Origin: Candidatus Adlerbacteria bacterium
GTDB taxonomy: Bacteria > Patescibacteriota > Minisyncoccia > Phycocordibacterales > SBAW01
DNA length: 64,000 nt
Reading direction: 5' to 3'
NCBI GenBank assembly: GCA_903851045.1
Contig: CAINNF010000017.1
Span: 34,353-98,352 of the forward strand
The notes under the pieces were generated by a model. The model had not been told where the DNA came from. It ran no database searches and saw only the letters and a list, made by a program, of their open reading frames with translations. The position numbers were made by a program, and so were the translations under genes. Numbering within the stretch: position 1 is the first letter of the stretch; every line of letters begins with the position of its first letter. Positions 28,401 to 52,545 of this stretch are shown here, piece by piece.

Positions 28401-29301
28401 GCTCGGTGAGGCGGTCGGTACGGTCGCCGCACAGGCTATCGGCGAGCCGGGTACCCAGCTCACGATGAACATCAAACACGCCGGCGGTGCGGCATCCGCA
28501 GCCGGTGACGTGACCCAGGGTCTCCCGCGCGTCGAAGAAATCTTCGAGCGCCGCTCTCCGCGCAACCCAGCGGTCGTTTCGACCATCTCGGGTGAGGTTG
28601 TCGAGATCCGCTCGACCGACAAGGAGAAGGTCATCTGCATCGCACCGGACCTAGAGCATCGTGGTAAAGGCAAGAAGGACGTCTTCGAGTTCGAATGCCA
28701 CCTGCGCCGCTTGCCGCTCGTGAAGGTGGGGGAGAAGGTCACGAAGGGTCAGATCATCACCGATGGTTCTGCCGACCTCGCCGACCTCTTCGCCTACGCC
28801 GGTAAGGAAACGACACAGGAATACATCATCACCGAGGTCCTCAAGATCTATGAGCTCCAGGGAGCAAGTATCTCCATCAAGCACCTCGAAACGATCATCC
28901 GCCAGATGTTCTCGCGCGTGAAGATCGTGAAGTCGGGCGACACGGAGTACTCCAAGGGTGATGTCGTCGCCGAGGCTGACATGACCTATGCCAACAATGC
29001 GGCAGAGGCTGCAGGCGGCGAGAAGGCGACCACCGAGCCGCTCGTCATGGGCATCCTCGATGTCTCACTCTCACGCCCGAGCTTCCTTTCGGCAGCATCC
29101 TTCCAGAACACGACACGCATGCTCATCCGTGCCTCGATGTACGGCTCGGTCGACAAGCTCGAAGGTCTCAAAGAGAACGTCATCATCGGCCGCCTCATCC
29201 CAGCCGGCACCGGCTTCAAGGGTTCACCAAAAGAAAAGTTGGTCAACCGCTACGCCCCCGTCGACCATGCGGACGTGGTGACGGAGAAGGAGACGGTCTA
29301 G
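22459..29301 (+). CDS. rpoBC: DNA-directed RNA polymerase beta and beta-prime subunits fused in one 2280-aa ORF
   Basis: The N-terminal ~1060 aa is RpoB ([77 protein letters not shown]). It continues without a stop through ...[49 protein letters not shown] into RpoC (zinc finger [22 protein letters not shown], catalytic [14 protein letters not shown]). Confidence 0.9.
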   Translation: [2280 protein letters not shown]

Positions 29302-32736: not shown

Positions 32737-35700
32737 ATGGCCAGACGAGTAGTAGAAGAAATATTTACCGGTGCGACGGTGCCGTACACATCGTATGACT
32801 CCACGAAGATAGTCACCGGGGATCTTATCGAGCAGTACATCGGCGCGAATCCGTCCGACAAATATATTGGTCCAACTCGTGTTGGGCGTGATTCGACGGG
32901 GACCATCTATGGCATGGGTCGTCCGTTCGAGGCGACCGCCGGTGTAGCGGGCGTATTTCCCCATGTTGTCCGTTGGGCGAATAAGTCTGGATACTATACG
33001 ACCGGTACGGTCGCTGTCTCTGGTACGAGCGTCACTGGTAGCAGCACGGCATGGCTCACCAATGGCGTGCCCATCGGTGCGACCATCGGCTTTGGCACCA
33101 CCGACCCGACGCAGGTGACCACCTGGTATACCATCAACGCTATTACGTCGGATACAGCGATTACGATAGGCACTTCGGCCGGTACTATCGCGGGCGGTAC
33201 ATCCTTCGTTATCAACAAGACCTTGCAGACCGACTGGGTATTTTTGGGAGACGGTTCTGCGGCTGCGGCAACCCGCAAGATACAGCTCTATGAGTTCAAC
33301 CGAAGCACCTCTGCTTTTACTGCAAAAGGATATGCGACACTTAACTACCCCTATGCCGGCACACAGGGCACCTATGTGCTGCACGGCCTTAAGGTGTCCT
33401 ATCAACCCTATACCACGGGTACTGTCCAATCCGGCGGCATGACGCCCAATGGTGCCTATTACAGCACTGGCACCGTTGCTGTCACGACTACGGCTGTGAC
33501 AGGCACTGGTACTACGTTCACTGCCGCTATGCAGGGTATGATGATCGGGTTTGGCTCGACCAACCCAGATTCCATCGCTACGTGGTACTACATCCAGACG
33601 TTTGGTTCGACCACAGCCCTCACACTTGCGACTTCAATTGGTGCAACTGCGATACCTGCAAGTACGCCCTATGTCATAGCGACCATATACAATGTCGGTA
33701 CCGTTGCGGTATCGGGTACGGGCGTCACGGGTACCGGCACCACCTTCTCCAACACCGGTATCTACAATGTGGCAGGTATGGCCATCGGCTTTGGCTCTGT
33801 GAACCCCGGCCAGATTACCACGTGGTATACCATCCAAACATGGGGCTCGAGCACGTCACTCACACTCTCAACATCAGCAGGGAGTCTCGGCTCTGGTCTC
33901 TCATATGTAATTGTTATCATGGCAGGTACGGCGTCGGTGTCGGGCAACGCGGTCACTGGTGTTGGTTCAAGCTTCTCGACCACGACCCAGGCGGGTATGC
34001 TCATTGGTTTTGGCTCGGTCAACCCCGCTTCGATAAGTAATTGGTATGTGATTAGTGCGGTCGGATCGACGACCGCGATGACTCTGGTGACCAGTCCGGG
34101 CACGGTCGGAGCCGGTCCATATGTCATCGTTATCGGTTCGATCGTTGGTTCGGGGACTTTGTGGTCCACGAGTAGAATCGCGGTCGGTTCGCGCATAGGC
34201 TTTGGTTCGACCGACCCAACACAGATATCCACCTGGTACTACGTCAACGCTATCGACAGCGATACTATCATGAATATCCAAGCGTCCGCGACAGCGACCG
34301 GTGTCGGAGGCGCCATGGTCGCGCTCTCGCTCGCCGCGAGTACGCCGTATGTGATAGAAGATCTTAAGATAGTCACCACTGCCACGAACGGCACCACTGC
34401 CACGAACGGTGGGCTATTCGTCGCCATGGGCCTTTCCTATGGCGATTTTGTGAACAGCGGCACCACTATCTCTGCCGCAACGATGATCGACAAGATAAAA
34501 GCGAACTACTGGCTCGGTGACGCAGCCACCTCGAACAACACCACCGCGTGCGCCTGTGTTATCGACGACTTCGTCTCGTGGACGACGCAGTACCGCTACG
34601 TCATCGACGGTGCCGGCGGTACCAGCGCAAGAGTCTACAAATATAATATTCGCAGCGGTCTATCCATACCCACCAGTGGTACCAACGGTAAGGACATCAC
34701 GGCGTTCATGTTCAGCACGTTGGCCCAAACGACGGCCAACAACCTACCTGCTATCGCTGCCAACAACAGTGTCGCATGCATCGCCACGCTCAACCATGGC
34801 CCTGGCGCAGGTGTGAAATGTCTCTATTTCATGAGTATTGCAAAGATACATCGTGCCAGAATTAGCGACATTACCACCAACGCATCGACCTGGTGGACAG
34901 ACTCCATGGTCGAAATACCGACTGGCGGTGCGGCAACCTACACCGCCTCGAGCGTGCTCAACCAAATTGCCGTGGACACCCAGATAGATCGCCTCGTCAT
35001 CACCACCAGCGGTGCCGCCACGTCGCCCGCCTCGAACCGCGCGTATGTCACCCAGTACAATGCGGTCAATAGTCCGATGGATCATATGTTCTTGGTCGAA
35101 TCCAGACAGCTCGACCAGTCATCCGAAGATGGCGCGGCTGCTCCGCACCCGAGCCTCATCGCCAGTACCTTCCTGTCGCTTTGGTCAGAAGGGGGGATAA
35201 CCTATATCGCTAAGACTGGCGCTGCTGCTACGATAAGTCAGATATATGCACTGCCTCTGGGTGCTGACTGGGCGTACGCGAACGGGACGGTCAACCAACG
35301 TCTGATAACCCCGGCGCTCGCCACCACGAATGCGGTCAAACTGGTGCGTGTGTATGTGAACAGTCAACCCTTTGCGGGGAGCGCGAACGTCTCGTCTCCA
35401 GGCAACCTGACGATTCCAAGCGAACCGTACCGACTACTCTATCGAACATCTGGTATCAGTGACAACTCGGGGACATGGACGGCGCTCACCGACTATACGG
35501 GGGATCTCTCGGGAGCGACCCCGGGGTCACAGATACAATTCGCGATCGAGTTTCGTACTATCGGCACGTTCTGTATTCCTAATAGAGTCTATAATCTCGC
35601 CTGTGTGTACGAAGATAATACGACCGACAGTCACTACCAACCGTCCGCTGGCCTCTCTTCGGTCACGACCAAGACGTTCGCATGGCGCTTTGCGACCGCG

Positions 35701-35955
35701 TGGGGCGGCACGGTGCCAACCTTGCGCGTGACACTTTTCGACGCGGTGAGCGGCGCACAGCTGTTCACCGACACGACCGCAGCATCACCCTTGCTCTGGC
35801 AAAAGACGACGAGCGGTGCCGGCGGATGGGGTGCGTATGACACGAACGATCTCACCGCATCTCCGGATGCGAAGTATAGCAATACATACATCAGCTACAC
35901 GCCGACGTCCCTTGGAGACAATATTAAGGTTCGCGCTCTGCTCACACAGGCATAA
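32737..35955 (+). CDS. 1072-aa Gly/Thr/Ser/Ala-rich repeat protein, no signal peptide
   Basis: Five or more ~75-aa repeats of the form TGTVAVSGTxVTGTGTTF...IGFGSxNPxxITTWYTIQTxGSxTxLTLxTS between ~33.0 and 34.3 kb. The remainder is beta-rich low-complexity. ATG 32737 is 29 nt after the upstream gene. Confidence 0.65.
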   Translation: MARRVVEEIFTGATVPYTSYDSTKIVTGDLIEQYIGANPSDKYIGPTRVGRDSTGTIYGMGRPFEATAGVAGVFPHVVRWANKSGYYTTGTVAVSGTSVTGSSTAWLTNGVPIGATIGFGTTDPTQVTTWYTINAITSDTAITIGTSAGTIAGGTSFVINKTLQTDWVFLGDGSAAAATRKIQLYEFNRSTSAFTAKGYATLNYPYAGTQGTYVLHGLKVSYQPYTTGTVQSGGMTPNGAYYSTGTVAVTTTAVTGTGTTFTAAMQGMMIGFGSTNPDSIATWYYIQTFGSTTALTLATSIGATAIPASTPYVIATIYNVGTVAVSGTGVTGTGTTFSNTGIYNVAGMAIGFGSVNPGQITTWYTIQTWGSSTSLTLSTSAGSLGSGLSYVIVIMAGTASVSGNAVTGVGSSFSTTTQAGMLIGFGSVNPASISNWYVISAVGSTTAMTLVTSPGTVGAGPYVIVIGSIVGSGTLWSTSRIAVGSRIGFGSTDPTQISTWYYVNAIDSDTIMNIQASATATGVGGAMVALSLAASTPYVIEDLKIVTTATNGTTATNGGLFVAMGLSYGDFVNSGTTISAATMIDKIKANYWLGDAATSNNTTACACVIDDFVSWTTQYRYVIDGAGGTSARVYKYNIRSGLSIPTSGTNGKDITAFMFSTLAQTTANNLPAIAANNSVACIATLNHGPGAGVKCLYFMSIAKIHRARISDITTNASTWWTDSMVEIPTGGAATYTASSVLNQIAVDTQIDRLVITTSGAATSPASNRAYVTQYNAVNSPMDHMFLVESRQLDQSSEDGAAAPHPSLIASTFLSLWSEGGITYIAKTGAAATISQIYALPLGADWAYANGTVNQRLITPALATTNAVKLVRVYVNSQPFAGSANVSSPGNLTIPSEPYRLLYRTSGISDNSGTWTALTDYTGDLSGATPGSQIQFAIEFRTIGTFCIPNRVYNLACVYEDNTTDSHYQPSAGLSSVTTKTFAWRFATAWGGTVPTLRVTLFDAVSGAQLFTDTTAASPLLWQKTTSGAGGWGAYDTNDLTASPDAKYSNTYISYTPTSLGDNIKVRALLTQA

Positions 35956-35963
35956 TCTCGCAT

Positions 35964-36626
35964 ATGAAAGTACGCATCTATCAAGACCAACCGGTACCTG
36001 ACAGCCCAGGCATCCTCGTGTTGTCACCGACGGGGGACTATGCCCCGTTCGATTTTATCGAGTGTTACCTTGCGGGTATGCCGGGGCAGTCGTACTGTGC
36101 GCATCAAGCGCAGTTCGTTAAGTTCGGTAGCATCGTATATCGAGAGGTAGAGTATATCAATCTGCTTAACCAGCTTGGGTTAGTGAACATCCAGCCAGAA
36201 ACGCTCCAGGATATGTTGTTGAAGGACCAATCGACCATCGTGATAGACAAGGATCCACAAGACATCGTCACACCGACGGCAGTATCGGCGGTCGTGGCGG
36301 ATGTGACGGTGACCGCACCTGCGAACCAATACTCCACCACGACGGACGAGATCATTCCTCCCACGACGACCACGACCGATACGGTTGCGAGCTCGACCCA
36401 AGCTGTTTCGCTGCCCATCGATACGAGTACCACTACTCCTGTGACTATTCCCGACGCCACCTCCACGCCACCTCTGGAAGGGTTTAGCACAACGACGGTG
36501 CCGATACTTGATGCAAGCACGACCACGTCAGCCGACCCGACTGCCGCGAGCACGACAGACACGACGGCGAGCACCTCGACCGCTGCGCAAGTTCCCGCAT
36601 CCGACTCACGATTAACCGCCTTCTGA
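35964..36626 (+). CDS. hypothetical protein with Thr/Ser/Pro-rich C-terminal half (220 aa)
   Basis: ATG 35964, 9 nt after the upstream stop. The C-terminus is TTTTTD...STTTP...ASTTD low complexity. Confidence 0.5.
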   Translation: MKVRIYQDQPVPDSPGILVLSPTGDYAPFDFIECYLAGMPGQSYCAHQAQFVKFGSIVYREVEYINLLNQLGLVNIQPETLQDMLLKDQSTIVIDKDPQDIVTPTAVSAVVADVTVTAPANQYSTTTDEIIPPTTTTTDTVASSTQAVSLPIDTSTTTPVTIPDATSTPPLEGFSTTTVPILDASTTTSADPTAASTTDTTASTSTAAQVPASDSRLTAF

Positions 36627-36634
36627 TTTTGCGT

Positions 36635-36820
36635 ATGGCTCTTACCGATATCGATTTTCAAAATGGTGAGGGTCAGGATTTTATCCTTGAGTTGCCGAGT
36701 GTGGTATATAGCGGCGTATTAACCGACATACTCATCGAGCCCAGCGGGAGTCAGTTTTTTGTGCTCGAGACGGCGAAGATAGTCAACTCGGGCAACAAGA
36801 TCTTTATCATGTCCGAATAA
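36635..36820 (+). CDS. small hypothetical protein (61 aa)
   Basis: ATG 36635 (the track uses TTG 36629). Ends 6 nt before the tatC ATG. Confidence 0.35.
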   Translation: MALTDIDFQNGEGQDFILELPSVVYSGVLTDILIEPSGSQFFVLETAKIVNSGNKIFIMSE

Positions 36821-36826
36821 GTGTGT

Positions 36827-37609
36827 ATGGACCGCCTGACCGCATACGTCGAGACCTACGGAGACTACTTAGAGGACGTTCGTCGTCGTTTGTACGTGGT
36901 CGTGATCATTTTCGTGTGCATCTTCGTCGCTGGATTCTTTGCGACACCCTATTTGGTCAAGCTCATGACGAGTTTCTTGAAGATCTCGAGCGTGTCTATT
37001 GTCGCGACCGCACCCTTTCAGCTTATCGATCTGGCGATGGATGTCGGGTTCTTTTTGGCTGTCGTGTTCACGAGTCCGGTGCTTTTGTATCACATCTATC
37101 AGTTCCTTCGTCCCGGACTCCTCTACGCTGAGCGCCGCATTTTCTTTTTTCTCATACCGGTCGGGGTGGTGCTTTTCATGCTCGGCTTTACGTACGGTTT
37201 CGCCATCATGTACTGTGCGCTCGGTGCGGTGGCGATTGTTAATCAGAGTGTCGGCATCGTGAATCTTTGGGACATCAGTCTGTTCATGTCGCAGATGTTG
37301 CTCACCTCGACGCTGCTCGGTTTGTTGTTCGAATTTCCCATCATCATCAGTTTTCTTATTCGTCTCGGGGTGGTGCAAGTCGACTTTCTGCGTGCGAAAC
37401 GTCGGCATGCGATCGTGATTATCTTTTTGTTCGTTGGACTGCTGCCACCAACGGATGGTTTGTCGCTTATCCTTATGTCCGCACCGCTCGTGGCGATCTA
37501 CGAGCTTACGATTATACTTAATGCACAGCGTGTGGGGGTGGCAACCACGCGGTGCTTATCGTGTTCTTGTTCGGTGCGAAGAAGATTCCAGAGCTCACGA
37601 GCGGTGTAG
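36827..37609 (+). CDS. tatC: Sec-independent (Tat) translocase subunit TatC
   Basis: Six-TM topology with TatC-like N-terminus MDRLTAYVETYGDYLEDVRRRLYVVVIIF and C-terminal PPTDGLSLILMSAPLVAIYELTIIL. The last ~25 codons (VGVATTRCLSCSCSVRRRFQSSRAV) are probably read-through into the degenerate tatA copy, so the true C-terminus is uncertain. Confidence 0.75.
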   Translation: MDRLTAYVETYGDYLEDVRRRLYVVVIIFVCIFVAGFFATPYLVKLMTSFLKISSVSIVATAPFQLIDLAMDVGFFLAVVFTSPVLLYHIYQFLRPGLLYAERRIFFFLIPVGVVLFMLGFTYGFAIMYCALGAVAIVNQSVGIVNLWDISLFMSQMLLTSTLLGLLFEFPIIISFLIRLGVVQVDFLRAKRRHAIVIIFLFVGLLPPTDGLSLILMSAPLVAIYELTIILNAQRVGVATTRCLSCSCSVRRRFQSSRAV

Positions 37610-37692
37610 CGGACGCCATCCGTCACTTGCGCGGCGCGTTCCGGGACGAGCCAGGTGCTGACACAGTGGTCGCCACTACTAGAAAAAAATAA
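37521..37692 (+). pseudogene. degenerate tatA paralog (frameshifted / N-terminally truncated)
   Basis: Frame 1 from 37552 encodes VLIVFLFGAKKIPELTSGVADAIRHLRGAFRDE, parallel to intact TatA LIVFLFGSKKIPEFGKMFADGIRTLRSGFKDE, and shares the 22-nt stretch cttatcgtgttcttgttcgg with it. The nearest upstream ATG (37521) is in a different frame. Copy 1 is 11 nt shorter than copy 2 between ATG and the shared block. Confidence 0.4.
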
Positions 37693-37705: not shown

Positions 37706-37876
37706 ATGCCATTCGACCTCGGTGCTAAAGAACTGTTAATTATAGCCGCGCTTATCGTGTTCTTGTTCGGATCGAAGAAGATTCCCGAATTCGGGAAAAT
37801 GTTCGCTGACGGTATCCGCACCCTGCGAAGCGGCTTCAAGGACGAGGTCGCGGTACAGGCGGTAGCAAAGAAATAG
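37706..37876 (+). CDS. tatA: Sec-independent (Tat) translocase subunit TatA/E
   Basis: MPFDLGAKELLIIAALIVFLFGSKKIPEFGKMFADGIRTLRSGFKDE: TM helix, FG hinge, amphipathic helix. 56 aa. Confidence 0.8.
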   Translation: MPFDLGAKELLIIAALIVFLFGSKKIPEFGKMFADGIRTLRSGFKDEVAVQAVAKK

Positions 37877-37918: not shown

Positions 37919-40900
37919 ATGAGGATAGAAAGATTTTTCGTATTGCACATCTTGCGGCCCGCGCCAGCGTTTTTTCTCTTTCTTCTACTTTTGTGCGTCC
38001 CCGCATTATCTTTAGCAGGTAGTTATCCACAGTATCCGGCGGGCTCCGTGGTCACGATTGGCGAGTTCGTCTACAACGACGACTACTCACCAACCACCGA
38101 CAACTGCGACGTGACAGTGTATGATCCGACCAACACGAAGGTGGTGTACGCTTCGACCACCGCACGGTCGGATGGATGGCACTCCTATACATTTACTCCA
38201 GCATCTGTCTTGGGTGTATGGTCGTCCAACATCTCCTGTGGTTCGAGCGCGGGGGGCACGCTGGTACGACAAGATGAATCGTTCGTGGTAGTGAGTCCTC
38301 CTGCATTGCAGTCTGATATCCAAACTGCCTCATCTTCGATCGCTGCGGTCGTGAACGCACATACTGATGCTGCGACCGGGAACGTCACCTCAGGTGTGAA
38401 TGCGCACACTGACGTTGCGTCGTCATCTATCGGCACGATGCTGTTGTCGATACCTTTGGCGGTATGGAATATCACTGCCAGCACCTTGACCACGGTCGGC
38501 TCGATCGGTAAGCAGCTTGCGACCAATGTAGACTCGGTACTTTCGGGAATTTCAAGTGGTATCGCACTGGCCGTCAACGGTCACACCGACACGGCGCTCA
38601 ACACCGCCTCATCCTCAATCGCTGCAGTCGTCAACGGCAACACCAACACTGCAACAGCTGGCATCACTTCAGGTGTGAACAGTCACACGGATTCGCAACT
38701 TGCGCTTGCAACCTCGTCGGTTAATGCACACACCGACTCCGCGACTGCGGGCATTACTTCAGGCGTCAATGGTCACACCGACACGGCGCTCAACACGGCC
38801 TCTTCTTCAATCGCTGCGGTCGTCAACGGCAACACGAACACTGCTACAGCTGGCATCACAACTGGCGTGAACGGTCACACGGATTCGCAACTTGCGACCG
38901 CAACCTCTTCGATTGTTGCTGTTGTGAACGGTCATACTGATTCGGCCGCTGCTGGCATTACCACAGCTGTTAATGGGCACACGGACATAGCATCTTCGTC
39001 GATCGCAGCCGTCGTCAATGGTAATACAAATACACAAACGAGTGGCATCGCGTCAGCAGTTAACACTAATACTAACAATATCGTCACTGCCGCATCCTCC
39101 TCGCTTGGTAGCACTCTCGGTTCGATCGCGTCCTCCATCCTCTCGGTGCCGGCGAACGTGTGGTCCTTCACTGGCCGCACGCTCGACTCCTTTGGCTCAA
39201 TCACCGGTGATGTTGCCACCGCCGTCTGGAGTGCAGCCACACGCACCCTCACGGGAGCTTCTCTCACAACGGGTTCGCTCGCGACTCAGTCTGATGTGAA
39301 CACCGCCTCATCCTCAGTCACGACCCTCGTGAACACACACACCGACTCCGCCACTGGCGGTATCGCATCGACAGTCAATGGTCACACCGACACTGCGCTT
39401 AACTCGGCATCCTCTTCAATAGCCGCTGTGGTGAATGGCAACACGAACACTGCGACCGCGGGTATCACGTCTGGCGTCAACGGGCACACCGATACTGCGC
39501 TCAATACCGCATCCTCGTCAATCGCCGCGGTCGTCAACGGCAATACGAACACTGCGACCGCGGGTGTAACTTCAGGGGTGAACTCCCACACGGACACACA
39601 ATTGGCGCTCGCTACGTCGTCGGTCAATTCTCACACCGATACGGCGACCGCGGGTATCACGAGCGCTGTTAATGCGAACACCACGAACATAGTTACTGCG
39701 GCATCATCCTCTCTCGGTTCCACCCTTGGTTCGATTGCATCCTCAATCCTCTCGGTGCCTGCGAACGTCTGGTCCTTCACTGGTCGTACACTCGACTCCT
39801 TTGGCTCGATTACAGGAGATGTGGCGACTGCGGTCTGGGGCGCAGCGACTCGAACACTCACTGGGGCAACTCTCACTACTGGCTCGCTTGCGACTCAGTC
39901 TGACGTAAACAATGCTTCTTCGTCAGTTGCGGCAGGTGTGAATGCACATACAGACTCAGCGACCGGTGGTATTGCGTCCACAGTCAATGGACACACAGAT
40001 ACCGCACTCAATACCGCCTCGTCTTCGATTGCCGCGGTCGTCAACGGCAACACGAACACTCAAACTGCGAGTATTACCTCGGGTGTGAACGGACACACCG
40101 ACTCGCAGCTCGCTACCGCAACCTCCTCGATCGCCGCTGTGGTCAACGGTCATACTGATTCGGCCACTGCTGGCATTACCACAGCTGTTAATGCGCACAC
40201 GGACATAGCCTCTTCCTCGATCGCGGCTGTAGTGAATGGTCACACCGACTCAGCGGCCGGTGGTATCGCTGCAGCGGTCAATACCAACACCACCAACGTC
40301 GTTACTGCCGCATCCTCTTCGCTGGGATTGACGCTCGGTTCTATTGCGTCTTCGATTCTCTCAGTACCTGCGAATGTGTGGGCATACTCGGGACGTACTC
40401 TGACCTCCTTCGGCACGATTACCGGCGACGTTGCGACCGCGGTCTGGGGCGCTGCCTCGCGAACACTCACGGGAGCTACCCTTACCACCGGCTCACTCGC
40501 AACTCAGACTGACGTGAACAATGCTTCGTCCTCGGTCGTGGCTGGAGTGAATGCGCATACGGACTCTGCAACCGGCGGCGTCGCATCAACGGTTAATGGA
40601 CACACAGACACCGCACTCAATGCTGCTTCGTCTTCGATCGCTGCGGTCGTCAACGGCAACACCAACACTGCGACTGCTGGCGTAACGACCGCAATCAACG
40701 CGCACACCGACTCCGCGACCGCAGGTGTCGCTTCGGCAGTCAACACCAACACCACTAACGTCGTCACCGCTGCATCGTCATCGCTCGGCTCGACGCTCGG
40801 TTCGATCGCGTCGGCTATCGTGTCGATGCCAGCGACGATAGTGTCGAGCGTGTGGAGCGCGACGTCTCGCACGCTCACCTCACTGAGTTTGTCATCCCAG

Positions 40901-41854
40901 AGTCCATGGGTGGTATCGCTTTCAAACTCGAGCACTGTTGCAGCGGGCAGTACGTACTATGCGACCGTTACCACAACCTACAATGGTACGTTGACCGACT
41001 CGGCGAATATCCCAACGATTACCATCTATGATCCAAGCAGGAACGTGATAGTCAACGCAGGCACCATGACGCGTACCGGTGTTGGTACCTACCAGTACAC
41101 CTACCTCACCAGCGGCAGCGCGCCGGGCGGCGTATGGGAGACCGATGTCACCGCGAATGTTGCGACCGGTCAGACGCTACCTGGTACGCAGTATTGGAAC
41201 CTCACGACATCTCCCGCGCAGGTCATAGTGAATAGTGTGAGCGCGGTCACCGTGCCTACCATCGGGGCGAACATTACGATCACCAACGAAGGTCTTGGCG
41301 GATATGAATATCACTATGCGTGGTGTGTCGTCGCCGATATCAGTACGCCCTGCGATGGAAGCAGTAACGACGTATTCTACGCGAACGCGGCGAAGTTCAT
41401 AAATCCGGGCGACAGCTTTAACACCACGCTCACTGCCACCGTGCCAACACCCGGTTCGTACTACTTTAAAGTCATCGCATACTTCGGAACCGAAAGTTCC
41501 GGTGCGTCACGTCAGTTTACCGCTACGGCGGGGAGCTCGAATAACGGCGGTTCCGGTGGCTCAGGTAGTTCCGGTGGCGGCAGCTCTGGGGGCGGCGGTT
41601 CGGGTGGTGGCGGAGCTGCTGTGGTGACCGCGGTACCATCGACACCAGCAGGGCAATGCAACGGGGCTGATCTGAATGGTGATCATGTGGTTAACTATAT
41701 CGACTTTTCAGTGCTGCTGTATTTCTGGCATACGCAGCCACCATTTAGGAATCCGTGCGTCGACATCAATCAAGACGGCAAGGTCGACGCACGAGACTTC
41801 TCCATCATGCTTTCCCAGTGGAAGACCGCAGGCACACCGTTTAAAAAGAGATGA
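37919..41854 (+). CDS. 1311-aa secreted fibrous protein with ~2.5 kb of hendecad-type tandem repeats, Gly/Ser linker and C-terminal dockerin domain
   Basis: Signal peptide MRIERFFVLHILRPAPAFFLFLLLLCVPALSLA. About 840 aa of VNGHTDTALNT / ASSSIAAVVNG / NTNTATAGITSG 11-residue units. Linker SSNNGGSGGSGSSGGGSSGGGGSGGGG. Duplicated dockerin segments DLNGDHVVNYIDFSVLLYFW and DINQDGKVDARDFSIMLSQW. Confidence 0.8.
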   Translation: MRIERFFVLHILRPAPAFFLFLLLLCVPALSLAGSYPQYPAGSVVTIGEFVYNDDYSPTTDNCDVTVYDPTNTKVVYASTTARSDGWHSYTFTPASVLGVWSSNISCGSSAGGTLVRQDESFVVVSPPALQSDIQTASSSIAAVVNAHTDAATGNVTSGVNAHTDVASSSIGTMLLSIPLAVWNITASTLTTVGSIGKQLATNVDSVLSGISSGIALAVNGHTDTALNTASSSIAAVVNGNTNTATAGITSGVNSHTDSQLALATSSVNAHTDSATAGITSGVNGHTDTALNTASSSIAAVVNGNTNTATAGITTGVNGHTDSQLATATSSIVAVVNGHTDSAAAGITTAVNGHTDIASSSIAAVVNGNTNTQTSGIASAVNTNTNNIVTAASSSLGSTLGSIASSILSVPANVWSFTGRTLDSFGSITGDVATAVWSAATRTLTGASLTTGSLATQSDVNTASSSVTTLVNTHTDSATGGIASTVNGHTDTALNSASSSIAAVVNGNTNTATAGITSGVNGHTDTALNTASSSIAAVVNGNTNTATAGVTSGVNSHTDTQLALATSSVNSHTDTATAGITSAVNANTTNIVTAASSSLGSTLGSIASSILSVPANVWSFTGRTLDSFGSITGDVATAVWGAATRTLTGATLTTGSLATQSDVNNASSSVAAGVNAHTDSATGGIASTVNGHTDTALNTASSSIAAVVNGNTNTQTASITSGVNGHTDSQLATATSSIAAVVNGHTDSATAGITTAVNAHTDIASSSIAAVVNGHTDSAAGGIAAAVNTNTTNVVTAASSSLGLTLGSIASSILSVPANVWAYSGRTLTSFGTITGDVATAVWGAASRTLTGATLTTGSLATQTDVNNASSSVVAGVNAHTDSATGGVASTVNGHTDTALNAASSSIAAVVNGNTNTATAGVTTAINAHTDSATAGVASAVNTNTTNVVTAASSSLGSTLGSIASAIVSMPATIVSSVWSATSRTLTSLSLSSQSPWVVSLSNSSTVAAGSTYYATVTTTYNGTLTDSANIPTITIYDPSRNVIVNAGTMTRTGVGTYQYTYLTSGSAPGGVWETDVTANVATGQTLPGTQYWNLTTSPAQVIVNSVSAVTVPTIGANITITNEGLGGYEYHYAWCVVADISTPCDGSSNDVFYANAAKFINPGDSFNTTLTATVPTPGSYYFKVIAYFGTESSGASRQFTATAGSSNNGGSGGSGSSGGGSSGGGGSGGGGAAVVTAVPSTPAGQCNGADLNGDHVVNYIDFSVLLYFWHTQPPFRNPCVDINQDGKVDARDFSIMLSQWKTAGTPFKKR
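38320..40870 (+). repeat. near-identical in-frame tandem repeats: 33-nt (11-codon) units nested in a ~600-nt higher-order repeat, 3 full copies plus one partial
   Basis: The motif block ASSSLGSTLGSIASSILSVPANVW...TGSLATQSDVN recurs at ~39.10, 39.70, 40.31 and (truncated) 40.78 kb. The intervening NxHTDxAxxG units are repeated dozens of times. Confidence 0.8.
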
Positions 41855-42744
41855 GACACTACCGAAACATATTTTGGATCATAGCCGTGCTCACCGTACT
41901 CCCAGGTTCGGCTCATGCCGCTACCGACGTATTGACGATAGAGCCACCGATTGGCGTTGTGTCGGTTGGAGATACGGTGCTGGTGCCTGTCTACCTTTCG
42001 ACCTTGCGGAATGTGAACGCGGTGGATGGGGAAGTGAGCGTCATCGGTCCAGTGACTGTCGTCTCGAATGACACGAGCGGCTCGGTGTTGACGCTCTGGC
42101 CACTGCCGCCGTCTCTGAGTGGTAGCGCGATATCCTTCACTGGTGGTGCGGTCACCAGCTTGACCGGGGCGCATCTAAAATTATTCTCTATCGCGGTGAA
42201 GATCACTGGTGCAGGACCCATCACGTTCAAAGTACAACATGGCACCGCCTATCTGGCGGATGGACAAGGGACTCCGCTTTCACTTACGGGTGTTGCGGCA
42301 GGGGTCACGGCGGGTACGGGTGCGTCAGCACGAAACGATCTTGCGATCGAGATACAACATGACACGACTCCACCCGAGCCGTTCACTATCGACTATGGGA
42401 GAGATCCACAGGTGTACGGTGGTAACTATTTCATTAGCTTTGGAGCGGTCGACACGCTGGGTGGCATAGACCACTACGATGTCACCGAAGGGACTCTCCC
42501 ATCGGTGCGCAGCGGTGATACATACGTGCTTCAGCGCCAGGGTCAGGACGAGACGATTACAGTCACCGCATATAACAAAGCCGGCCGTGCCCGCGTATCA
42601 ACCTACACCGTCTCGGTGTCTCGTCCAGCCGGAGGGGTGGAGTGGATGTGGCTCTTGATTATACCACTGCTGTTGTTCGCTGCTGTCTCATACGTACTCT
42701 ATTGTCGAAGTACGAGACGTCGTGTGAAAAAGAGGAAGAGATAA
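41851..42744 (+). CDS. membrane-anchored cohesin-domain protein (297 aa)
   Basis: ATGA overlap with the upstream stop. Signal peptide. Cohesin-like beta-sandwich blocks (VSVGDTVLVPVYLSTLRNVNAVDGEVSV...LTLWP...ISFTGG...ITFKV). C-terminal TM (WMWLLIIPLLLFAAVSYVLY) plus basic stop-transfer tail RRRVKKRKR. Confidence 0.6.
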   Translation: MRHYRNIFWIIAVLTVLPGSAHAATDVLTIEPPIGVVSVGDTVLVPVYLSTLRNVNAVDGEVSVIGPVTVVSNDTSGSVLTLWPLPPSLSGSAISFTGGAVTSLTGAHLKLFSIAVKITGAGPITFKVQHGTAYLADGQGTPLSLTGVAAGVTAGTGASARNDLAIEIQHDTTPPEPFTIDYGRDPQVYGGNYFISFGAVDTLGGIDHYDVTEGTLPSVRSGDTYVLQRQGQDETITVTAYNKAGRARVSTYTVSVSRPAGGVEWMWLLIIPLLLFAAVSYVLYCRSTRRRVKKRKR

Positions 42745-42748
42745 TACT

Positions 42749-44278
42749 ATGTTGTGCACGTCATCTGTCAAACAAGTCACGCGCCTCTCCGTTCGCATGT
42801 TCGTGGTGTCCGTGCTCATGATGCTACTGTGCGGTCCCCACGCAGCGCGCGCAGCCACGGTGTCGTTGACGCCGATGGTGTCGTCGATCTCAGCGGGGAA
42901 CATCGTTACGGTACACGTCATGGTGAACACGCAGGGAGTTGCTATCAACGACGGGAGCGCCACGATCCAGTTCCCGACCGATCTTCTTGAGGTGGTGTCG
43001 GTTTCGAAAAGTTCATCCATTTTCTCGCTCTGGGTCGAAGAGCCAACGTTCTCCAACAGCGCCGGTACGGTGACGTTCGATGGTGGGGTACCGACGCCGG
43101 GGTATCAGGGAGGTAGTGGAGACATGCTCGATATTACCTTTCGCGCAAAAAAGACAGGTGCCGCTTCGATACTGGTTACGAACGTGAACGTGCTCGCCAA
43201 CGATGGACAAGGGACGGACGTATTCAGCGGGTCGAGCAATGACACTATCACCATCACGCCGTCAGTACCAGCCGCGCCGATCCAGACACCTGCACCCATA
43301 GCAAAGCCTGCTGCGACACCGACCGTCATACAGACCACCCCGACCGACACGACGGTGCACATCACTTCCTCGACCCATCCATCACAGACTGCCTGGTATG
43401 CGCAGAACACGGCACAGCTGGGGTTCGACCTACCCCCGAAGACCGCCGCGATCAAATTCTTGGTGAGTCAGGACCAAACGACGGTTCCGACAAAGACATA
43501 CAAGCCTGCGATCACACAAAAGTCGACCGACGCGCTCACCGACGGCACATGGTACGTCCAAGTAAGTGCACTTGCGGGCGGGGTATGGGGTCCGGTGAGC
43601 ACCTATACGCTCAATATCGATACTATGCCGCCTCGGTTGAGTATTACATCGCTCGTCTATTCGTCGGACACCAAGACTGTCACGGTCACCGGCTCAGCAC
43701 AGGACGATACCTCTGGGTTTGGGTCACTGTCGCTGGTGGTCGATGGCGTCGATGCGCGAAGTGACGTGGCGGGACTGTTGACCCAGGGGACGGTCCAGGT
43801 ACCGCTTGATGCGTCTCCGGGGCAGCATGTCGTAAAAGTACGAGCGGTCGATCGAGCGGGGAATTATATGGATTCGCAAGACTTCTACGTCATGGTACCG
43901 GCCGAACCGTACGTGCCCAAGGGCGTAGTGGCGGTCACGACGTGGTATGTCGAGACGCACGGCTCGATGGTACTGGTCGTGTTAGCGCTCTGCATCTCGT
44001 TGTTGTCGTTGATCTTCAATGTCATACTTTGGAACAAACTCCGCATCTACCGAAAACGACCACACTCCGGGGTTGTGCACATGAGAGAGCAGACGAAAGA
44101 GCGGCTTATGGACCTCAAAAAAGATCTTCACAAACAGGCAAAGCTGTACGATAAGACGGGTACCCACAAGGCGACTACGAAGGAAGAGGCTGACTACGCG
44201 AAGAAGATGCAGGCCCATATAGCCGATGTCGAACAATATGTGGACCGCAAGATACAGGACATAACGAAGCGTCCCTGA
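42749..44278 (+). CDS. membrane-anchored cohesin-domain protein with Ig-like spacer and charged cytoplasmic tail (509 aa)
   Basis: Signal peptide. Cohesin-like blocks (ISAGNIVTVHVMVNTQGVAINDGSATIQFPTDLLEVVSVSKSSSIFSLWVEEPTFSNSAGTVTFDGG). Pro/Thr linker, beta-rich middle, TM MVLVVLALCISLLSLIFNVILW, ~90-aa helical cytoplasmic tail. Confidence 0.6.
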   Translation: MLCTSSVKQVTRLSVRMFVVSVLMMLLCGPHAARAATVSLTPMVSSISAGNIVTVHVMVNTQGVAINDGSATIQFPTDLLEVVSVSKSSSIFSLWVEEPTFSNSAGTVTFDGGVPTPGYQGGSGDMLDITFRAKKTGAASILVTNVNVLANDGQGTDVFSGSSNDTITITPSVPAAPIQTPAPIAKPAATPTVIQTTPTDTTVHITSSTHPSQTAWYAQNTAQLGFDLPPKTAAIKFLVSQDQTTVPTKTYKPAITQKSTDALTDGTWYVQVSALAGGVWGPVSTYTLNIDTMPPRLSITSLVYSSDTKTVTVTGSAQDDTSGFGSLSLVVDGVDARSDVAGLLTQGTVQVPLDASPGQHVVKVRAVDRAGNYMDSQDFYVMVPAEPYVPKGVVAVTTWYVETHGSMVLVVLALCISLLSLIFNVILWNKLRIYRKRPHSGVVHMREQTKERLMDLKKDLHKQAKLYDKTGTHKATTKEEADYAKKMQAHIADVEQYVDRKIQDITKRP

Positions 44279-47933: not shown

Positions 47934-49505
47934 TTACATATCCCCGCCGGTGTAGGAGAGACTAAAGCTTTTGTTGATGAGCGGGAAGTCGGGCACCACG
48001 TTGCCTTTTCCAGCGTAGCCGACGCACGGCCAGTTAAGGAGCGACGGGTCGCGCATATCGACGCGTGAGATTGAGCCGGTCGAGTCGGTGGCGACGAGAC
48101 ACACCATGTCACCACGCCAGCCTTCGGTGATCGAAACGGCGAAGGCGTTCTTCGGTAGTACGGGTGGCTGTAGTTTCGCGATACTATCGCTGGGGAGCGC
48201 TTCGAGCGCCTGGAGGATCAGGTCGATGGACGTATAGACCTCTTCGATGCGTACCGTGAAGCGGGCTTCGACATCGCCTTCTTGTGCGCCCGCCATGGTG
48301 AAGCGAAGCGACTCGTACGCTGCGTACGGGTACTGCGCGCGTGCGTCGTTCTGTATGCCTACGGCTCGACCGGCCACACCGGTACACCCATGGTCTCGCG
48401 CGATCTTCGGGTCGAGGATGCCGGTATCCTTCAGACGATTGATGAGCGAGCTGGAGTCCGCGGCTATCGCCATAACTTCGGCGAAGTCGGTGCGCAGCTC
48501 CACAAGCTCTTCGCTCAACGTGTGTGCAGCCTCTTTCGAAAGATCCTTGGTGACACCGCCGATCGTGTTCACGCCCCGGAGGAACCGACTACCGGTCAGG
48601 CGGTCACAGATACGCATGACACGCTCGCGCAAGCGTGCGCCTTGCGCACCTCCGAAGTTGAACCCGGTGTCGGTCATGATTGCCCCGATGTCACTGAAGT
48701 GATTCGCCAATCGTTCGAGCTCGGAGTAGACGACGCGTAGGTGTTTTGCTCGGGCGGGTACGACGATGTTCATGAGCGTCTCGACCGCCTGGCAGAATGC
48801 GAGCGAATAGGTAAAGGACGAATCGCCGGCGATGCGCTCGGAGAGCTGCACCTTCTTCTCCAAAGGCAGCGTCTCGAACAATTTTTCGGTCCCTTTGTGC
48901 GAGTAACCGAGTCTTGGTTCGAGGTTCAGTATCTCTTCGCCCGCAAGGTGGAAGCGGAAGTGCCCTGGCTCGATGATACCCGCGTGGACCGGTCCTACAG
49001 GCAGTTCGTAGATACCTTCTTCTCCGCCGATATGTGCGAATGAGAATGGTGTATCGGTGTCGGTCATCGGTGGGCGCTCGTTCCAAAGGAACTTCTTTCT
49101 TAGTGGGTATGTTCCCTTTGGCCAGTTGTCATGCAGGATGATCGAGCGCGGGTGCGGGTGTCCCGTTGGCGAGAGACCGAAGAGCGAGTTGATCTTTCGC
49201 TCATACAAGCTCGCCTCGTGGATGGAAGGTGTAAGCGAGGGGAACTCGCTCACGGTCTGGAGCGATAAGGTGATGAACTTGTGCGCCTGGGGGATACCGA
49301 ACACATACAGTATGCGATAGAGGCCGCCGTCCCGTGTCTCGTCGAGCGCGGTGATCATCTTCAGCGGCAATCGGTGTGCACGATACAGACCGTTCGCCAA
49401 GGCCACGAGGTCCGCAGCTTTGACCGGGACGATGATGCAGTTGCCCGAGATGCTGACCTCGGTATGCTCTGGCAGATATTTTTGTATAAGATGTTTGGTG
49501 TCCAT
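47934..49505 (-). CDS. fused NuoC-NuoD-like subunit (HycE/EhrL-like) lacking NiFe-binding cysteines
   Basis: VGPVHAGIIEPGHFRF and GYSHKGTEKL NuoD/large-subunit signatures. The ~140-aa N-terminus resembles the NuoC/30-kDa fold. No RxCGxC or DPCxxC NiFe ligands. Confidence 0.75.
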   Translation of the reverse strand: MDTKHLIQKYLPEHTEVSISGNCIIVPVKAADLVALANGLYRAHRLPLKMITALDETRDGGLYRILYVFGIPQAHKFITLSLQTVSEFPSLTPSIHEASLYERKINSLFGLSPTGHPHPRSIILHDNWPKGTYPLRKKFLWNERPPMTDTDTPFSFAHIGGEEGIYELPVGPVHAGIIEPGHFRFHLAGEEILNLEPRLGYSHKGTEKLFETLPLEKKVQLSERIAGDSSFTYSLAFCQAVETLMNIVVPARAKHLRVVYSELERLANHFSDIGAIMTDTGFNFGGAQGARLRERVMRICDRLTGSRFLRGVNTIGGVTKDLSKEAAHTLSEELVELRTDFAEVMAIAADSSSLINRLKDTGILDPKIARDHGCTGVAGRAVGIQNDARAQYPYAAYESLRFTMAGAQEGDVEARFTVRIEEVYTSIDLILQALEALPSDSIAKLQPPVLPKNAFAVSITEGWRGDMVCLVATDSTGSISRVDMRDPSLLNWPCVGYAGKGNVVPDFPLINKSFSLSYTGGDM

Positions 49506-49511
49506 AGTTTT

Positions 49512-50954
49512 TTATATCGAGCTTGCTGCTGCGTGTAGTAACGTACGTATCTCTTCCGGCACGTACAATCCGAGGAGGATAAGGATGATGAGCAGGGTGA
49601 GCGACGGCACGACCGTGAGATAGTTCGATTCTCCTGGCGCCACTTCCGACGGTGCATCACCGTATGCGAGTCCGGTCACGTGTCGCAGGAAGCCGACGAA
49701 CACCAGTGCTAACCCGAACACGGCCGCAGCGGCGACGTATGGATGTAGAGCGAACCCGGCGATTATGATATACAGCTCGGTCATAAAGATACCGAACGGC
49801 GGTAACCCGACAACCGCGAGAAACGCAGTAAAGAACAGTATCGTTGTGGTCGGGAGCGTGGTAAGCAGCCCGCGCACGTTCTCTATCTTGGTCGAGCTGT
49901 ATTTGAGGAAGATATTGCCGGCACAAAAGAAGAGCGACGACTTCGCGAGCGAGTGGTAGATCATGTGCAGGAGTGCAGCGAAAGTCCCGACCCCACCGAA
50001 GCCGAACCCCAGCACCATAATACCCGCATGTTCGATACTGGAGTATGCCAGGAGGCGCTTGTAGTTCCATTGCGTAAAGATGATGAGGCCCGCGACGAGG
50101 ATGGTGAAGAGTCCGAAGCCTATGAGAAGGTACTGAGTGAAGTTCGAGTGGAGCGCGAGATCGGTCACTCCCTTAAAGCGCAGGAGCGCCAAGAGCGCGA
50201 CGTTGAGCAGTGCACCCGAGAATAGGGCGACGACCGGTGTCGGTGCCTTACTGTACGCGTCCGGTTTCCAGGTGTGCATGGGAGCTAGCCCGATCTTGGT
50301 GCCGTAGCCGATCAGCACCATAACGAACCCGATCTTTGCCACGAGCGGGTCTATGGCGCCTGCACTCGCTCGGAGCATGTCCCAGGTAACGAACTCGGCA
50401 CCGCCTGCGTCACGAAACGCGGTGAAGTAGAGAAGCGTGCCCAAGAACCCAAGCAGCAGCCCGACCGAGTTGATGATGAGATACTTCCATGCGGCCTCCA
50501 TCGCTGAGCGTTTGTTATAGAAGCTGACCAAGAAGGCGGTCGCGAGCGTCGTCGCTTCGACCGCGATCCACAACAAAATAGGTGCGGTCGTCACGACCGC
50601 GAAGAACATCGCGAATAGGAAAAGATGCACAAGCACGAAGTATTCGCGCACGCGGCGGAAGCCGATGATACCCTTCGACACCTCCTCCCGCAGGTATCCG
50701 ACCGAATAGAGCGCGGTGAAGAACCCGATGATAGCGACCGTACAGATGACAATCGCGCCGAACGCGTCGATCGAGAACGCGCCATTGTACGTTTGTGTCG
50801 CGATCGATGCACGCTGTGCGAGCACCAGGGCCGCGCCCAGTTCGAGTCCTGTCGTGAGGATCGCAACTATGTCGAGCACCAACGACTTCCGCGCGATGAC
50901 GGACAATAGTGCGGCGAGTAATGGGGTCGAAAGAAGGATAAGTAGTGTGGTCAT
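49512..50954 (-). CDS. NuoN/NuoM/MrpD-like proton-pumping antiporter subunit
   Basis: 14-TM protein with WKPDAY...IEHAGIM-type blocks (KIGLAPMHTWKPDAYSKAPTPVVALFSGALL, LLAYSSIEHAGIMVLGFG). Confidence 0.8.
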   Translation of the reverse strand: MTTLLILLSTPLLAALLSVIARKSLVLDIVAILTTGLELGAALVLAQRASIATQTYNGAFSIDAFGAIVICTVAIIGFFTALYSVGYLREEVSKGIIGFRRVREYFVLVHLFLFAMFFAVVTTAPILLWIAVEATTLATAFLVSFYNKRSAMEAAWKYLIINSVGLLLGFLGTLLYFTAFRDAGGAEFVTWDMLRASAGAIDPLVAKIGFVMVLIGYGTKIGLAPMHTWKPDAYSKAPTPVVALFSGALLNVALLALLRFKGVTDLALHSNFTQYLLIGFGLFTILVAGLIIFTQWNYKRLLAYSSIEHAGIMVLGFGFGGVGTFAALLHMIYHSLAKSSLFFCAGNIFLKYSSTKIENVRGLLTTLPTTTILFFTAFLAVVGLPPFGIFMTELYIIIAGFALHPYVAAAAVFGLALVFVGFLRHVTGLAYGDAPSEVAPGESNYLTVVPSLTLLIILILLGLYVPEEIRTLLHAAASSI

Positions 50955-51610
50955 AGTGTTGTATCAGAAAGATTTTTCATCAAGGTGACGTCGAGCGAGC
51001 CGAACTGTCGATACAGCATCGAGATGAAGACGGTCGCGATAGCGACCCATACCAGGATGTCGAAGGTGATACCGAGCTCTAGTGCCGGACTTTGTTCGAG
51101 TCCGGTGAAGAGTGCGAACGCGACGATGCTGTTCTCGACCGAGAGGATGCCGAGCATCTGCGAGAGTGCGCCTTTCTTGTTGACGAGCAGGAAGAGCGAG
51201 ATGAAGAATGATGCTAGTGAAAGGAGCACGAGCGTCGGACTTTCGGGACTAAGGTTCGCGAGCGGCGCGAAGTAGTGGCTAAAGCTCAGTGCCACGATGA
51301 GCGCGAGCACCAGCAAGGTTTCGGGGCTACTCAGGTAGGTGGTGCTCGAGAAACGGAGCTGATTGCGGCGCACAAGACGCGCGAGGAAGTATGGCGCTAG
51401 GATGACCTTCACCGCAGCGGTGACCACGATGGCGATGATCGCGATCGTGGAGAAATCGCCGGCACCGGTAAGCAGTATCGCGATGGCGCCCGACTGGAGC
51501 GCATACAGCGAAATGGCGGTCCGATTCTTCTTCACGAGGTGTTGTAATACGCTCGACATGAACACGATGACGCCGAGGATGAGGATCAGTTGTGGTGCGA
51601 TGAGTGACAT
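50951..51610 (-). CDS. HyfE/EhrC-like small membrane subunit
   Basis: Start re-placed at ATG (complement 51608-51610), MSLIAPQLILILGVIVF. About 220 aa with 6-7 TM helices. The track N-terminal extension overlaps the upstream gene and is spurious. Confidence 0.55.
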   Translation of the reverse strand: MSLIAPQLILILGVIVFMSSVLQHLVKKNRTAISLYALQSGAIAILLTGAGDFSTIAIIAIVVTAAVKVILAPYFLARLVRRNQLRFSSTTYLSSPETLLVLALIVALSFSHYFAPLANLSPESPTLVLLSLASFFISLFLLVNKKGALSQMLGILSVENSIVAFALFTGLEQSPALELGITFDILVWVAIATVFISMLYRQFGSLDVTLMKNLSDTTL

Positions 51611-51615
51611 ACGGT

Positions 51616-52542: not shown

Positions 52543-52545
52543 ACG

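Follow-up and report, generated by a model that had tools for sequence, protein, structure and literature searches.

The window analysed here is a stretch of 64,000 nucleotides from a Candidatus Adlerbacteria bacterium, and it contains a gene for a secreted protein of 1311 amino acids whose middle part is built of tandem repeats (Table 1). It is suggested here that these repeats, at 38320-40870, encode the stalk of a fibre on the surface of a bacterium from the Candidate Phyla Radiation (CPR), that this stalk is probably a coiled coil, that the fibre docks into the cohesins of neighbouring proteins and that the repeat copies are ancient. We would place the probability of this reading as a whole at about 0.65. 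According to the model that we propose, the helix of the stalk would be broken every 203 residues by a double W-x4-RTLT module of about 50 residues, and a type I dockerin, joined to the rest of the protein by a flexible Gly/Ser linker, would dock with the cohesin domains of two proteins that are anchored in the membrane and whose genes lie directly downstream. In this arrangement the fibre would stand up from the cell surface, its N-terminal domain outermost. Its length, if some 630 helical residues are taken at 0.15 nm each and the modules are added, would be about 100 nm, and it would be set by the number of repeats.

Structure of the repeat region

The first-pass annotation described a two-level repeat, with 33-nt units inside super-repeats of about 600 nt, and proposed a self-comparison as a check on the longer period. 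Run as DNA self-similarity over 38320-40870, this comparison gave a sharp peak of identity at a lag of 609 nt (0.61) and another at 1218 nt (0.58), with all other lags at or below 0.42, while protein self-identity at a lag of 203 residues was 0.61 as compared with 0.117 +/- 0.011 after shuffling of the composition. The outer level is real, and consists of three full copies of 609 nt with diverged partial copies on either side. A repeat search placed three copies at 39014, 39623 and 40232, spaced by 609 and 609 nt, along with partial copies. The block beginning ASSSLG, which had been noted at about 39.10, 39.70 and 40.31 kb with a truncated copy at about 40.78 kb, was found to start at 39092, 39701 and 40310, with a diverged or shortened copy at 40772.

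The inner level is not built as had been described. When units were delimited at the motif [VI]N.[HN]T[DNT], 34 were obtained, 21 of them 15 residues and eight of them 19 residues long, the other five extending into spacer modules or into the C-terminal part; the unit is thus not one of 11 codons, and protein self-identity at a lag of 11 residues (0.146) is barely above background, while it is higher at 15 (0.237) and 34 (0.282) residues. The consensus of the shorter unit is V-N-(G/A)-H-T-D-x-A-T-A-G-I-T-S-G and that of the longer one V-N-G-H-T-D-T-A-L-N-T-A-S-S-S-I-A-A-V. Each full block contains seven units followed by a spacer module of 90 residues. The unit arrays give periods of 45, 57 and 102 nt, and the sub-array of 102 nt was the sole repeat detected by Tandem Repeats Finder because the copies are too diverged.

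Age of the repeat copies

The copies had been said to be separated by no more than a few synonymous and conservative changes. This is so at the protein level, where the super-repeats are about 90% identical, but as DNA they are 72-81% identical, and the 90-codon spacers are 73-77% identical, with 43-47 synonymous and 8-16 non-synonymous codon differences between copies. The longest DNA repeats and best repeat families are no closer than this, with identities of 64-81%. By the method of Nei and Gojobori the spacers show a proportion of synonymous differences (pS) of 0.65-0.66, a synonymous divergence (dS) of about 1.5-1.6 and a non-synonymous divergence (dN) of 0.06-0.12, with dN/dS at about 0.04-0.08. 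Comparison of the C-terminal domain with that of the closest available orthologue (L047) gave a dS of 1.5 and a dN of 0.10, which match the values between copies.

Codon choice was compared with what would be expected if codons were drawn at random according to the codon usage of the gene itself. At identical amino acids in the spacers, 46, 43 and 47 codons differ where 53, 48 and 51 are expected, and for the six-codon unit motif, taken over all pairs of units, the fraction of codons that differ is 0.578 as against an expected 0.577. Two pairs are somewhat younger, namely 39938-40084 and 40547-40693, with 17 differing codons as against 27 expected, and a 34-codon pair at 39374-39577, with 15 as against 20.7. 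Since synonymous sites are saturated and codon choice is near random, the duplication is old. The copies are ancient, each is held by strong purifying selection, and there is no sign of gene conversion.

Among themselves the W-x4-RTLT modules of the window protein have identities of 83-96%, as compared with 0.32-0.65 to those of other species. All three also have a common insertion of four residues (52 aa, as compared with 48 aa) that is absent from relatives. This closer likeness within the protein, taken together with the common insertion, shows that the 609-nt super-repeat is the product of a block duplication that took place in this lineage, though long ago.

Predicted structure of the stalk

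Residues 539-722 were modelled as a single chain with AlphaFold2 from a 20-row alignment of repeat segments. The model (mean predicted local distance difference test score, pLDDT, of 80) has an uninterrupted helix at its residues 2-81, which comprise units and the beginning of the spacer, with a pLDDT of 95-98 in the middle. The helix resumes at residues 122-183, after a W-x4-RTLT stretch that is sparsely helical and has a pLDDT of 43-60. In the spectrum of hydrophobicity over aa 145-990 the main peak lies at a period of 3.76 residues with a power of 398, the next highest being 67, and this period is phase-coherent across 850 residues. It equals 15/4 and 34/9 and is close to 19/5. For strongly right-handed coiled coils, 15/4 = 3.75 and 19/5 = 3.8 are both accepted values (PMC4786415). 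The unit lengths of 15 and 19 differ by four residues, or about one helical turn, and the 90-residue spacer is 6 x 15, which together fit a helical rod that preserves its phase.

On this model the alpha-helix probably runs on from unit to unit without a break and would assemble as a right-handed coiled coil (15/4, 19/5), and a trimer would be our guess for its oligomeric state. We infer a coiled-coil bundle, and with it the orientation and length of the fibre given above and a role as adhesin or spacer.

The dockerin and the neighbouring cohesin proteins

The C-terminus of the protein matches the dockerin family PF00404 with 27.9 bits in the whole protein and 29.8 bits in a C-terminal fragment, where the gathering cut-off is 22.9. 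The translation reads as two duplicated segments of Ca-binding loop and helix (D-x-N-x-D-...-D), DLNGDHVVNYIDFSVLLYFW and DINQDGKVDARDFSIMLSQW, and the second of these also draws weak EF-hand matches.

Synteny was counted over 80 related loci, or in the case of tatC over the 43 loci whose upstream sequence is 3 kb or longer. In all 80, homologues of the two proteins encoded next to the fibre gene (297 aa and 509 aa) lie directly downstream on the same strand. The profile A2, built from 16 orthologues, matched the cohesins 5aoz (E 4e-4) and 5m2o (E 6e-4) among PDB sequences, and distant homologues found with phmmer (P0029-P0049) carry the cohesin domain PF00963. To one of these, P0035, which has PF00963 and PF19077, the 509-aa protein can be aligned over its full length (BLASTP, E 2e-38). 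An AlphaFold2 model of the 297-aa protein reached a pLDDT of 88.8, and when it was compared with PDB structures by Foldseek the list was led by cohesins (2w1n, E 1.8e-8; 2xdh, TM 0.77; 2vo8, TM 0.78; 3kcp; 5nrm), with a double module of cohesin and FN3 as the best match. These three lines of evidence agree on a cohesin, and in the model the 297-aa neighbour has the cohesin beta-sandwich (jelly-roll) fold. From the arrangement of the genes we infer that the dockerin would pair with these particular cohesins.

Distribution of the W-x4-RTLT module

At E <= 1e-3 a profile of the repeat segment matched 1407 cluster representatives, and at E <= 1e-10 it matched 390. Most of these matches cross the W-x4-RTLT part, and a single protein can have as many as 23 stretches; of the proteins matched some have dockerins and others look archaeal or phage-like. 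The module is encoded on 42 IMG/VR viral contigs, down to 'DVATAVWGAAxRTLT', and phmmer matches were obtained for 38 of the 42. A few of these contigs also encode the AxW...GSIGK module, and portal, tape-measure and minor-tail genes are among those near the module. The family phrog_1084 is matched by some of the proteins with repeats, and the PHROG matches of the phage-like ones are labelled 'unknown function'. That W-x4-RTLT is common to phage proteins points to an exchange of modules between phages and cellular surface fibres.

Two of the proteins matched by the profile, P0185 (1301 aa) and P0227 (1878 aa), resemble surface proteins of archaea and have about 23 W-x4-R-N-L-T-Y repeats that are full of N-x-T sequons. 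The spread of the W-x4-R(T/N)LT repeat is therefore far wider than this CPR family, and among the proteins scanned no Pfam match fell on it.

Alternative explanations

The likeness of the copies was originally taken to imply recent expansion or ongoing gene conversion, by which the copies would be young or continually homogenised and the gene an active hotspot of length change. It is true that the copies are about 90% identical as protein, that they resemble each other more than copies in other species, that the two pairs named above are somewhat younger and that length varies strongly among species. However, an identity between copies of just 72-81% as DNA, synonymous differences (pS 0.65-0.82, dS at least 1.1-1.8) as large as those that separate the gene from its closest orthologue, a synonymous codon choice that is 87-100% randomised and the lack of any near-identical DNA tract able to drive conversion or slippage speak so clearly for age that this explanation, for this gene, is largely refuted, and we consider it very improbable. 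A second possibility concerns the assembly, which through collapse or mis-joining might have produced the wrong number of 609-nt blocks. Within the family the repeats do break short-read assemblies, in support of the first-pass annotation, which saw in such repeats a hotspot for assembly collapse: contigs end on the repeat side, within 2 kb upstream of the C-terminal domain, in 26 of the 80 loci and on the downstream side in 2 of the 80, and the contig of the closest relative (L047) is cut inside its repeats. Collapse in the window itself is unlikely, because long near-identical DNA is absent and because two metagenome contigs from ENA (L083 and L084), to which P0021, a protein identical to the downstream neighbour, led us, are 100% identical to it. 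They are colinear and gap-free with 38466-42802 and 38952-42802 and so begin within the repeats, but both span R2-R4 and one spans most of R0-R1 as well. Moreover about a quarter of the bases differ between copies, which lets reads of 100-150 nt be placed uniquely, and the frame is intact for 1311 codons with both conserved termini present. The repeat copy number of the window is probably reliable, and an artefact would come as a considerable surprise.

A different form of the stalk would leave its anchoring and its role unchanged. It could be a beta-solenoid or beta-roll of 15-residue turns, similar to the head of YadA, or else a flexible and possibly glycosylated spacer rich in Ser, Thr and Asn; the composition of the repeats, rich in Gly, Ser, Thr and Asn, would suit either, and a strong harmonic at 2.14 residues in the unit arrays and the absence of a structural match by Foldseek can be read in the same way. 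Single-chain AlphaFold2, moreover, can over-predict helices in Ala-rich repeats. Yet the prediction is one uninterrupted helix at a pLDDT of 95-98, the period of 3.76 residues is dominant and coherent over the whole stalk, the unit lengths differ by exactly four residues and Pfam gave no Hep_Hag or YadA-head match, so that we hold a stalk of this kind to be rather unlikely. As for the gene itself, the first-pass annotation was correct in seeing a repeat-built, fibre-like surface protein, but a phage tail fibre, in which the repeats would be the shaft of a viral receptor-binding fibre, is, if that was what it meant, refuted by the housekeeping context of the gene and by synteny in 80 chromosomal loci. 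The W-x4-RTLT module and, more rarely, AVW...GSIGK do occur in proteins on the 42 IMG/VR contigs, which carry portal, tape-measure and minor-tail genes, and some repeat-bearing proteins have the phrog_1084 match. The gene, by contrast, lies on a chromosome with housekeeping genes on either side, in a window without tRNA genes; it encodes a signal peptide and a dockerin; and its cohesin and Tat context is alike in 80 loci from many species. Searches of PHROGs with the gene and its neighbours gave no significant match, the single one having an E value of 0.008, tblastn of the super-repeat and of the repeat-bearing relative P0186 against GenBank phages gave none, and the 15- and 19-residue units had no match on the IMG/VR viral contigs. 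That this is a phage or prophage tail-fibre gene thus seems to us very improbable.

Several points weigh against the docked coiled-coil stalk that we prefer. The prediction is of a single chain; the 15-residue units are rich in Gly, with three in the consensus; stretches consisting of units only show the strong harmonic at 2.13-2.14 residues, which could fit a beta pattern; and Foldseek found no match to the repeat model in PDB, as is expected for a lone helix. On the side of the anchor, the match between the cohesin profile and PDB spans just 60 residues or so at an E value of 4e-4, and PF00963 was found neither in the 297-aa and 509-aa proteins, at E values up to 10, nor in the 16 A2 orthologues. 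Gene adjacency, in 80 of 80 loci, is the one line of evidence for the pairing of dockerin and cohesins. A conserved link with tatC and tatA exists, yet a canonical twin-arginine signal is absent from every protein of the cluster. Finally, both ENA contigs start inside the repeats and neither covers 38320-38465, and they may share source samples with the window and hence not be independent.

Protein family and unit motif

Twenty homologues with 33-47% identity and lengths of 721-1256 aa have both termini alike and a middle that differs; those that are named belong to Candidatus Taylorbacteria and to Pacebacteria/Paceibacterota. A scan with the C-terminal domain, with one genome per species, yielded 170 relatives. 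Nearly all of them are labelled Patescibacteria/CPR, a few metagenome-assembled genomes (MAGs) being labelled 'uncultured Gammaproteobacteria' or 'uncultured bacterium', and the closest, at 85% identity, is the Candidatus Adlerbacteria MAG that carries L047. The length variation of surface fibres that had been anticipated is evident between related species, in which the open reading frames (ORFs) predicted to be complete encode 268-2283 aa and hold between 0 and 31 units. Those shorter than about 450 aa, however, are nearly devoid of repeats and could be wrong calls. We found no description of this family in the literature on dockerins and cohesins in CPR/Parcubacteria or on CPR coiled-coil surface proteins.

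The window protein is the extreme of the family for His units, having 23 with H-T-D, 8 with N-T-N and 3 with N-T-T, while in the family loci L003-L082 the counts are 313 for N-T-N, 27 for N-T-D, 18 for H-T-D and 0 for H-T-N. On a more tentative reading, H-T-D has replaced N-T-N as the unit motif in the lineage of the window. His at position 4 always occurs with Asp at position 6, H-T-N being absent from the units of the window (at 38351-40738) and from those of the family loci, and Asn at position 4 pairs with Asn or Asp at position 6. The idea that Asn/His occupies a central position in the core was set aside, since at a period of 3.75 position 4 is about 72 degrees off the hydrophobic seam and so is flanking.

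Outside the stalk, the N-termini of relatives are similarly hydrophobic to the signal peptide of the window protein. The N-terminal domain, which had only a weak match to MG2 in Pfam (E 0.1), is presumed to be the distal tip of the fibre. The conserved C-terminal region of about 220 aa is presumed to consist of two beta-rich domains; its sole matches, to MG2 and PirA-like families, are weak, and the profile of this C-terminal domain had no match among PDB sequences. Matches in PDB to the linkers of single-chain variable fragments were rejected as spurious, being caused by the Gly/Ser linker. Whole-protein searches of Pfam, NCBIfam, PHROGs and PDB sequences matched nothing in the repeat region.

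Conserved gene cluster and chromosomal setting

Genes for components of twin-arginine translocation (Tat) precede the fibre gene, and tatC is upstream in 39 of the 43 loci. Twin arginines are absent or sporadic in the 1072-aa protein, the cohesin proteins and the fibre, and the idea that any of these is a Tat substrate is not supported. Three further proteins of 1072, 220 and 63 aa are encoded before tatC, and the order of their genes is alike in L001 and L002. The 220-aa protein has a C-terminal half that is an extreme low-complexity tract of Thr, Ser, Pro and Ala. The 1072-aa protein has internal repeats of about 80 aa (GTVAVxGTxVTGxGTxF...IGFGSxNPxxIxTWYxI) and neither a signal peptide nor a Pfam match. 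Its family is very conserved and gave more than 1243 matches at about 50% identity, mostly of 800-900 aa and with an N-terminus of MAxRA[VI]EHxFTG; they are unnamed or 'hypothetical', and the few with an organism name are from Patescibacteria.

The window is part of a bacterial chromosome, with rpoBC, dnaG, rpoD, SMC, RNase R, tatC and nuo/Mrp-like genes, and neither tRNA genes nor Rfam matches were found in it. The host genome is of Patescibacteria/Paceibacteria and close to Adlerbacteria, that is, of an ultra-small CPR bacterium. At 22459-29301 (+) a single ORF of 2280 aa contains all RpoB domains followed by all RpoC domains, and looks like a fused rpoB-rpoC gene. At 47934-54585 (-) a protein like a NuoC/NuoD fusion (Complex1_30kDa and 49kDa) adjoins two antiporter-like subunits of the Mrp/NuoL type, and this is a module similar to respiratory complex I or to membrane hydrogenases in a CPR-type genome. 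Beyond the fibre gene, the two ENA contigs have exactly the same end, base 42802, 53 nt inside the second cohesin gene. The coincidence suggests that both assemblies broke at this point, and paralogous cohesin sequence or strain variation could be the cause. When the 1311-aa protein was looked up by exact sequence in the contig index, nothing was returned.

Table 1. Features of the fibre gene and of its neighbours in the window
Feature	Position	Strand	Basis or remark
1072-aa repeat protein	32737-35955	+	Homologues upstream in 38 related loci
220-aa protein	35964-36626	+	Homologues upstream in 27 related loci
63-aa protein	36629-36820	+	Homologues upstream in 31 related loci
tatC	36821-37609	+	Pfam TatC, E 1e-39
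Two tandem tatA-like genes, directly after tatC	37552-37692 and 37706-37876	+	ORF list
Whole fibre gene: secreted repeat protein of 1311 aa with C-terminal dockerin	37919..41854	+	ORF; 20 homologues share the architecture
Signal peptide, about aa 1-34 (MRIERFFVLHILRPAPAFFLFLLLLCVPALSLA then GS), Sec-like, without twin arginine	37919..38020	+	Sequence reading
Conserved N-terminal domain, about aa 35-135, GEFVY(N/D)DDY...	38021..38323	+	Kept in all full-length relatives
Repeat stalk, about 850 aa, aa 145 to about 990	Between N-terminal domain and conserved C-terminal region	+	
R0, diverged first block, units 1-5	38351..38719	+	Unit parsing
AVWxxxSxLTxxGSIGKxL-type module inside R0	38396-38572	+	Type recurs in relatives and viral proteins
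R1, super-repeat copy 1, 609 nt, 7 units then 90-aa spacer module	38720..39328	+	
W-x4-RTLT double module of R1 (SVPANVWSFTGRTLDSFGSITGDVATAVWSAATRTLTGASLTTGSLATQSDV)	39143..39298	+	Equivalents at 39752-39907 and 40361-40516
R2, super-repeat copy 2, 609 nt	39329..39937	+	
Youngest internal duplication, within R2	39374-39475 and 39476-39577	+	Period 102 nt
R3, super-repeat copy 3, 609 nt	39938..40546	+	
R4, truncated fourth copy, 4 units and shortened module with single W-x4-RTLT	40547..40879	+	
Conserved C-terminal region, about 220 aa, with conserved W-C...C motif	40883..41542	+	Alignment A1, mean column identity 67%
Gly/Ser-rich flexible linker	41543..41668	+	Sequence reading
Type I dockerin, aa 1251-1297 (DLNGDHVVNYID... 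and DINQDGKVDARD...)	41669..41809	+	Pfam PF00404
First downstream gene (297 aa), with a signal peptide, a cohesin domain, a second beta-sandwich domain (FN3/Ig-like) and a C-terminal transmembrane helix	41851..42744	+	
Second downstream gene (509 aa), with a signal peptide, a cohesin-like and an Ig-like domain, a transmembrane helix and a charged cytoplasmic tail	42749..44278	+	

Comparison with known systems

We rate the system as a combination of known kinds, a coiled-coil surface fibre on the one hand and cohesin-dockerin anchoring on the other. Trimeric autotransporter adhesins (TAAs) like YadA, BadA, SadA and the adhesins of Shiga toxin-producing Escherichia coli (STEC) are long, modular fibres built of repeats in which, as is proposed here, repeat number sets length. 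Their stalks are right-handed coiled coils of non-heptad (pentadecad) type with many polar residues near the core and with short connectors (PMC4786415, PMC13580157, PMC2373917), and the helical segments of our single-chain model are likewise broken by short connector modules. By analogy, the stalks of TAAs would be the closest functional counterparts of the repeats. The window protein differs from them in that it has no beta-barrel of the YadA type (no barrel match in Pfam or NCBIfam) and ends in a dockerin instead, in that its CPR host has no outer membrane into which a barrel could be inserted, in that no TAA domains of Pfam occur in it, and in that its V-N-x-H/N-T-D/N motif and 19-residue unit were not matched to TAA motifs. 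As the defining beta-barrel anchor is absent, it stands outside the TAA family.

The second component resembles the cohesin-dockerin systems of cellulosomes and non-cellulosomal pairs such as those of Clostridium perfringens and Archaeoglobus fulgidus, with which it has in common a C-terminal type I dockerin of two Ca-binding loop-helix segments and a cell-anchored carrier of cohesins, here the neighbours with a predicted cohesin fold. In this case, however, the cargo would be a fibre and not an enzyme, and the anchor is a C-terminal transmembrane helix where other systems use S-layer homology (SLH) domains or sortase. Further differences are that Pfam fails to recognise cohesins as divergent as these, that tatC and tatA are linked with the operon and that the host is a CPR bacterium. 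The phage W-x4-RTLT-x-FG-T-L proteins from IMG/VR, which are uncharacterised structural proteins similar to tail fibres, have in common with the window protein the 20-22-residue W-x4-RTLT repeat and the AxWxxxxxxLTxxGSIGKxL module, but unlike it they lack a signal peptide, a dockerin and arrays of 15- or 19-residue units. In the staphylococcal proteins SasG and Aap the number of repeats governs projection from the cell, and these repeats are nearly identical as DNA and variable between strains, whereas the copies in the window are 72-81% identical as DNA and saturated at synonymous sites. Near-identical protein repeats can thus hide fully diverged DNA, so that it is unsafe to conclude from a translation that an expansion is recent.

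If the stalk is as proposed, its sustained period of 3.76 residues together with the polar H-T-D/N-T-N motif would make it a natural addition to the few strongly right-handed coiled coils, and the H-T-D units could respond to pH or metal ions. More tentatively, the locus might be the core of an undescribed, Paceibacteria-wide surface apparatus, made up of a fibre of about 100 nm with a right-handed coiled coil of 15- and 19-residue units and W-RTLT modules of phage-fibre type, two dedicated membrane cohesins that would hold its dockerin, tatC/tatA and three conserved proteins, with which ultra-small episymbionts would reach or hold their hosts; this we see as possible but doubtful. To our knowledge, the attachment of CPR/Patescibacteria to hosts is little understood beyond the type IV pili of Saccharibacteria. 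The fibre and cohesin operon, found in at least 170 species-level genomes, is a candidate for a second device of attachment or spacing, and if the model is true it would extend cohesin-dockerin anchoring from the display of enzymes to the display of fibres in a deeply divergent lineage.

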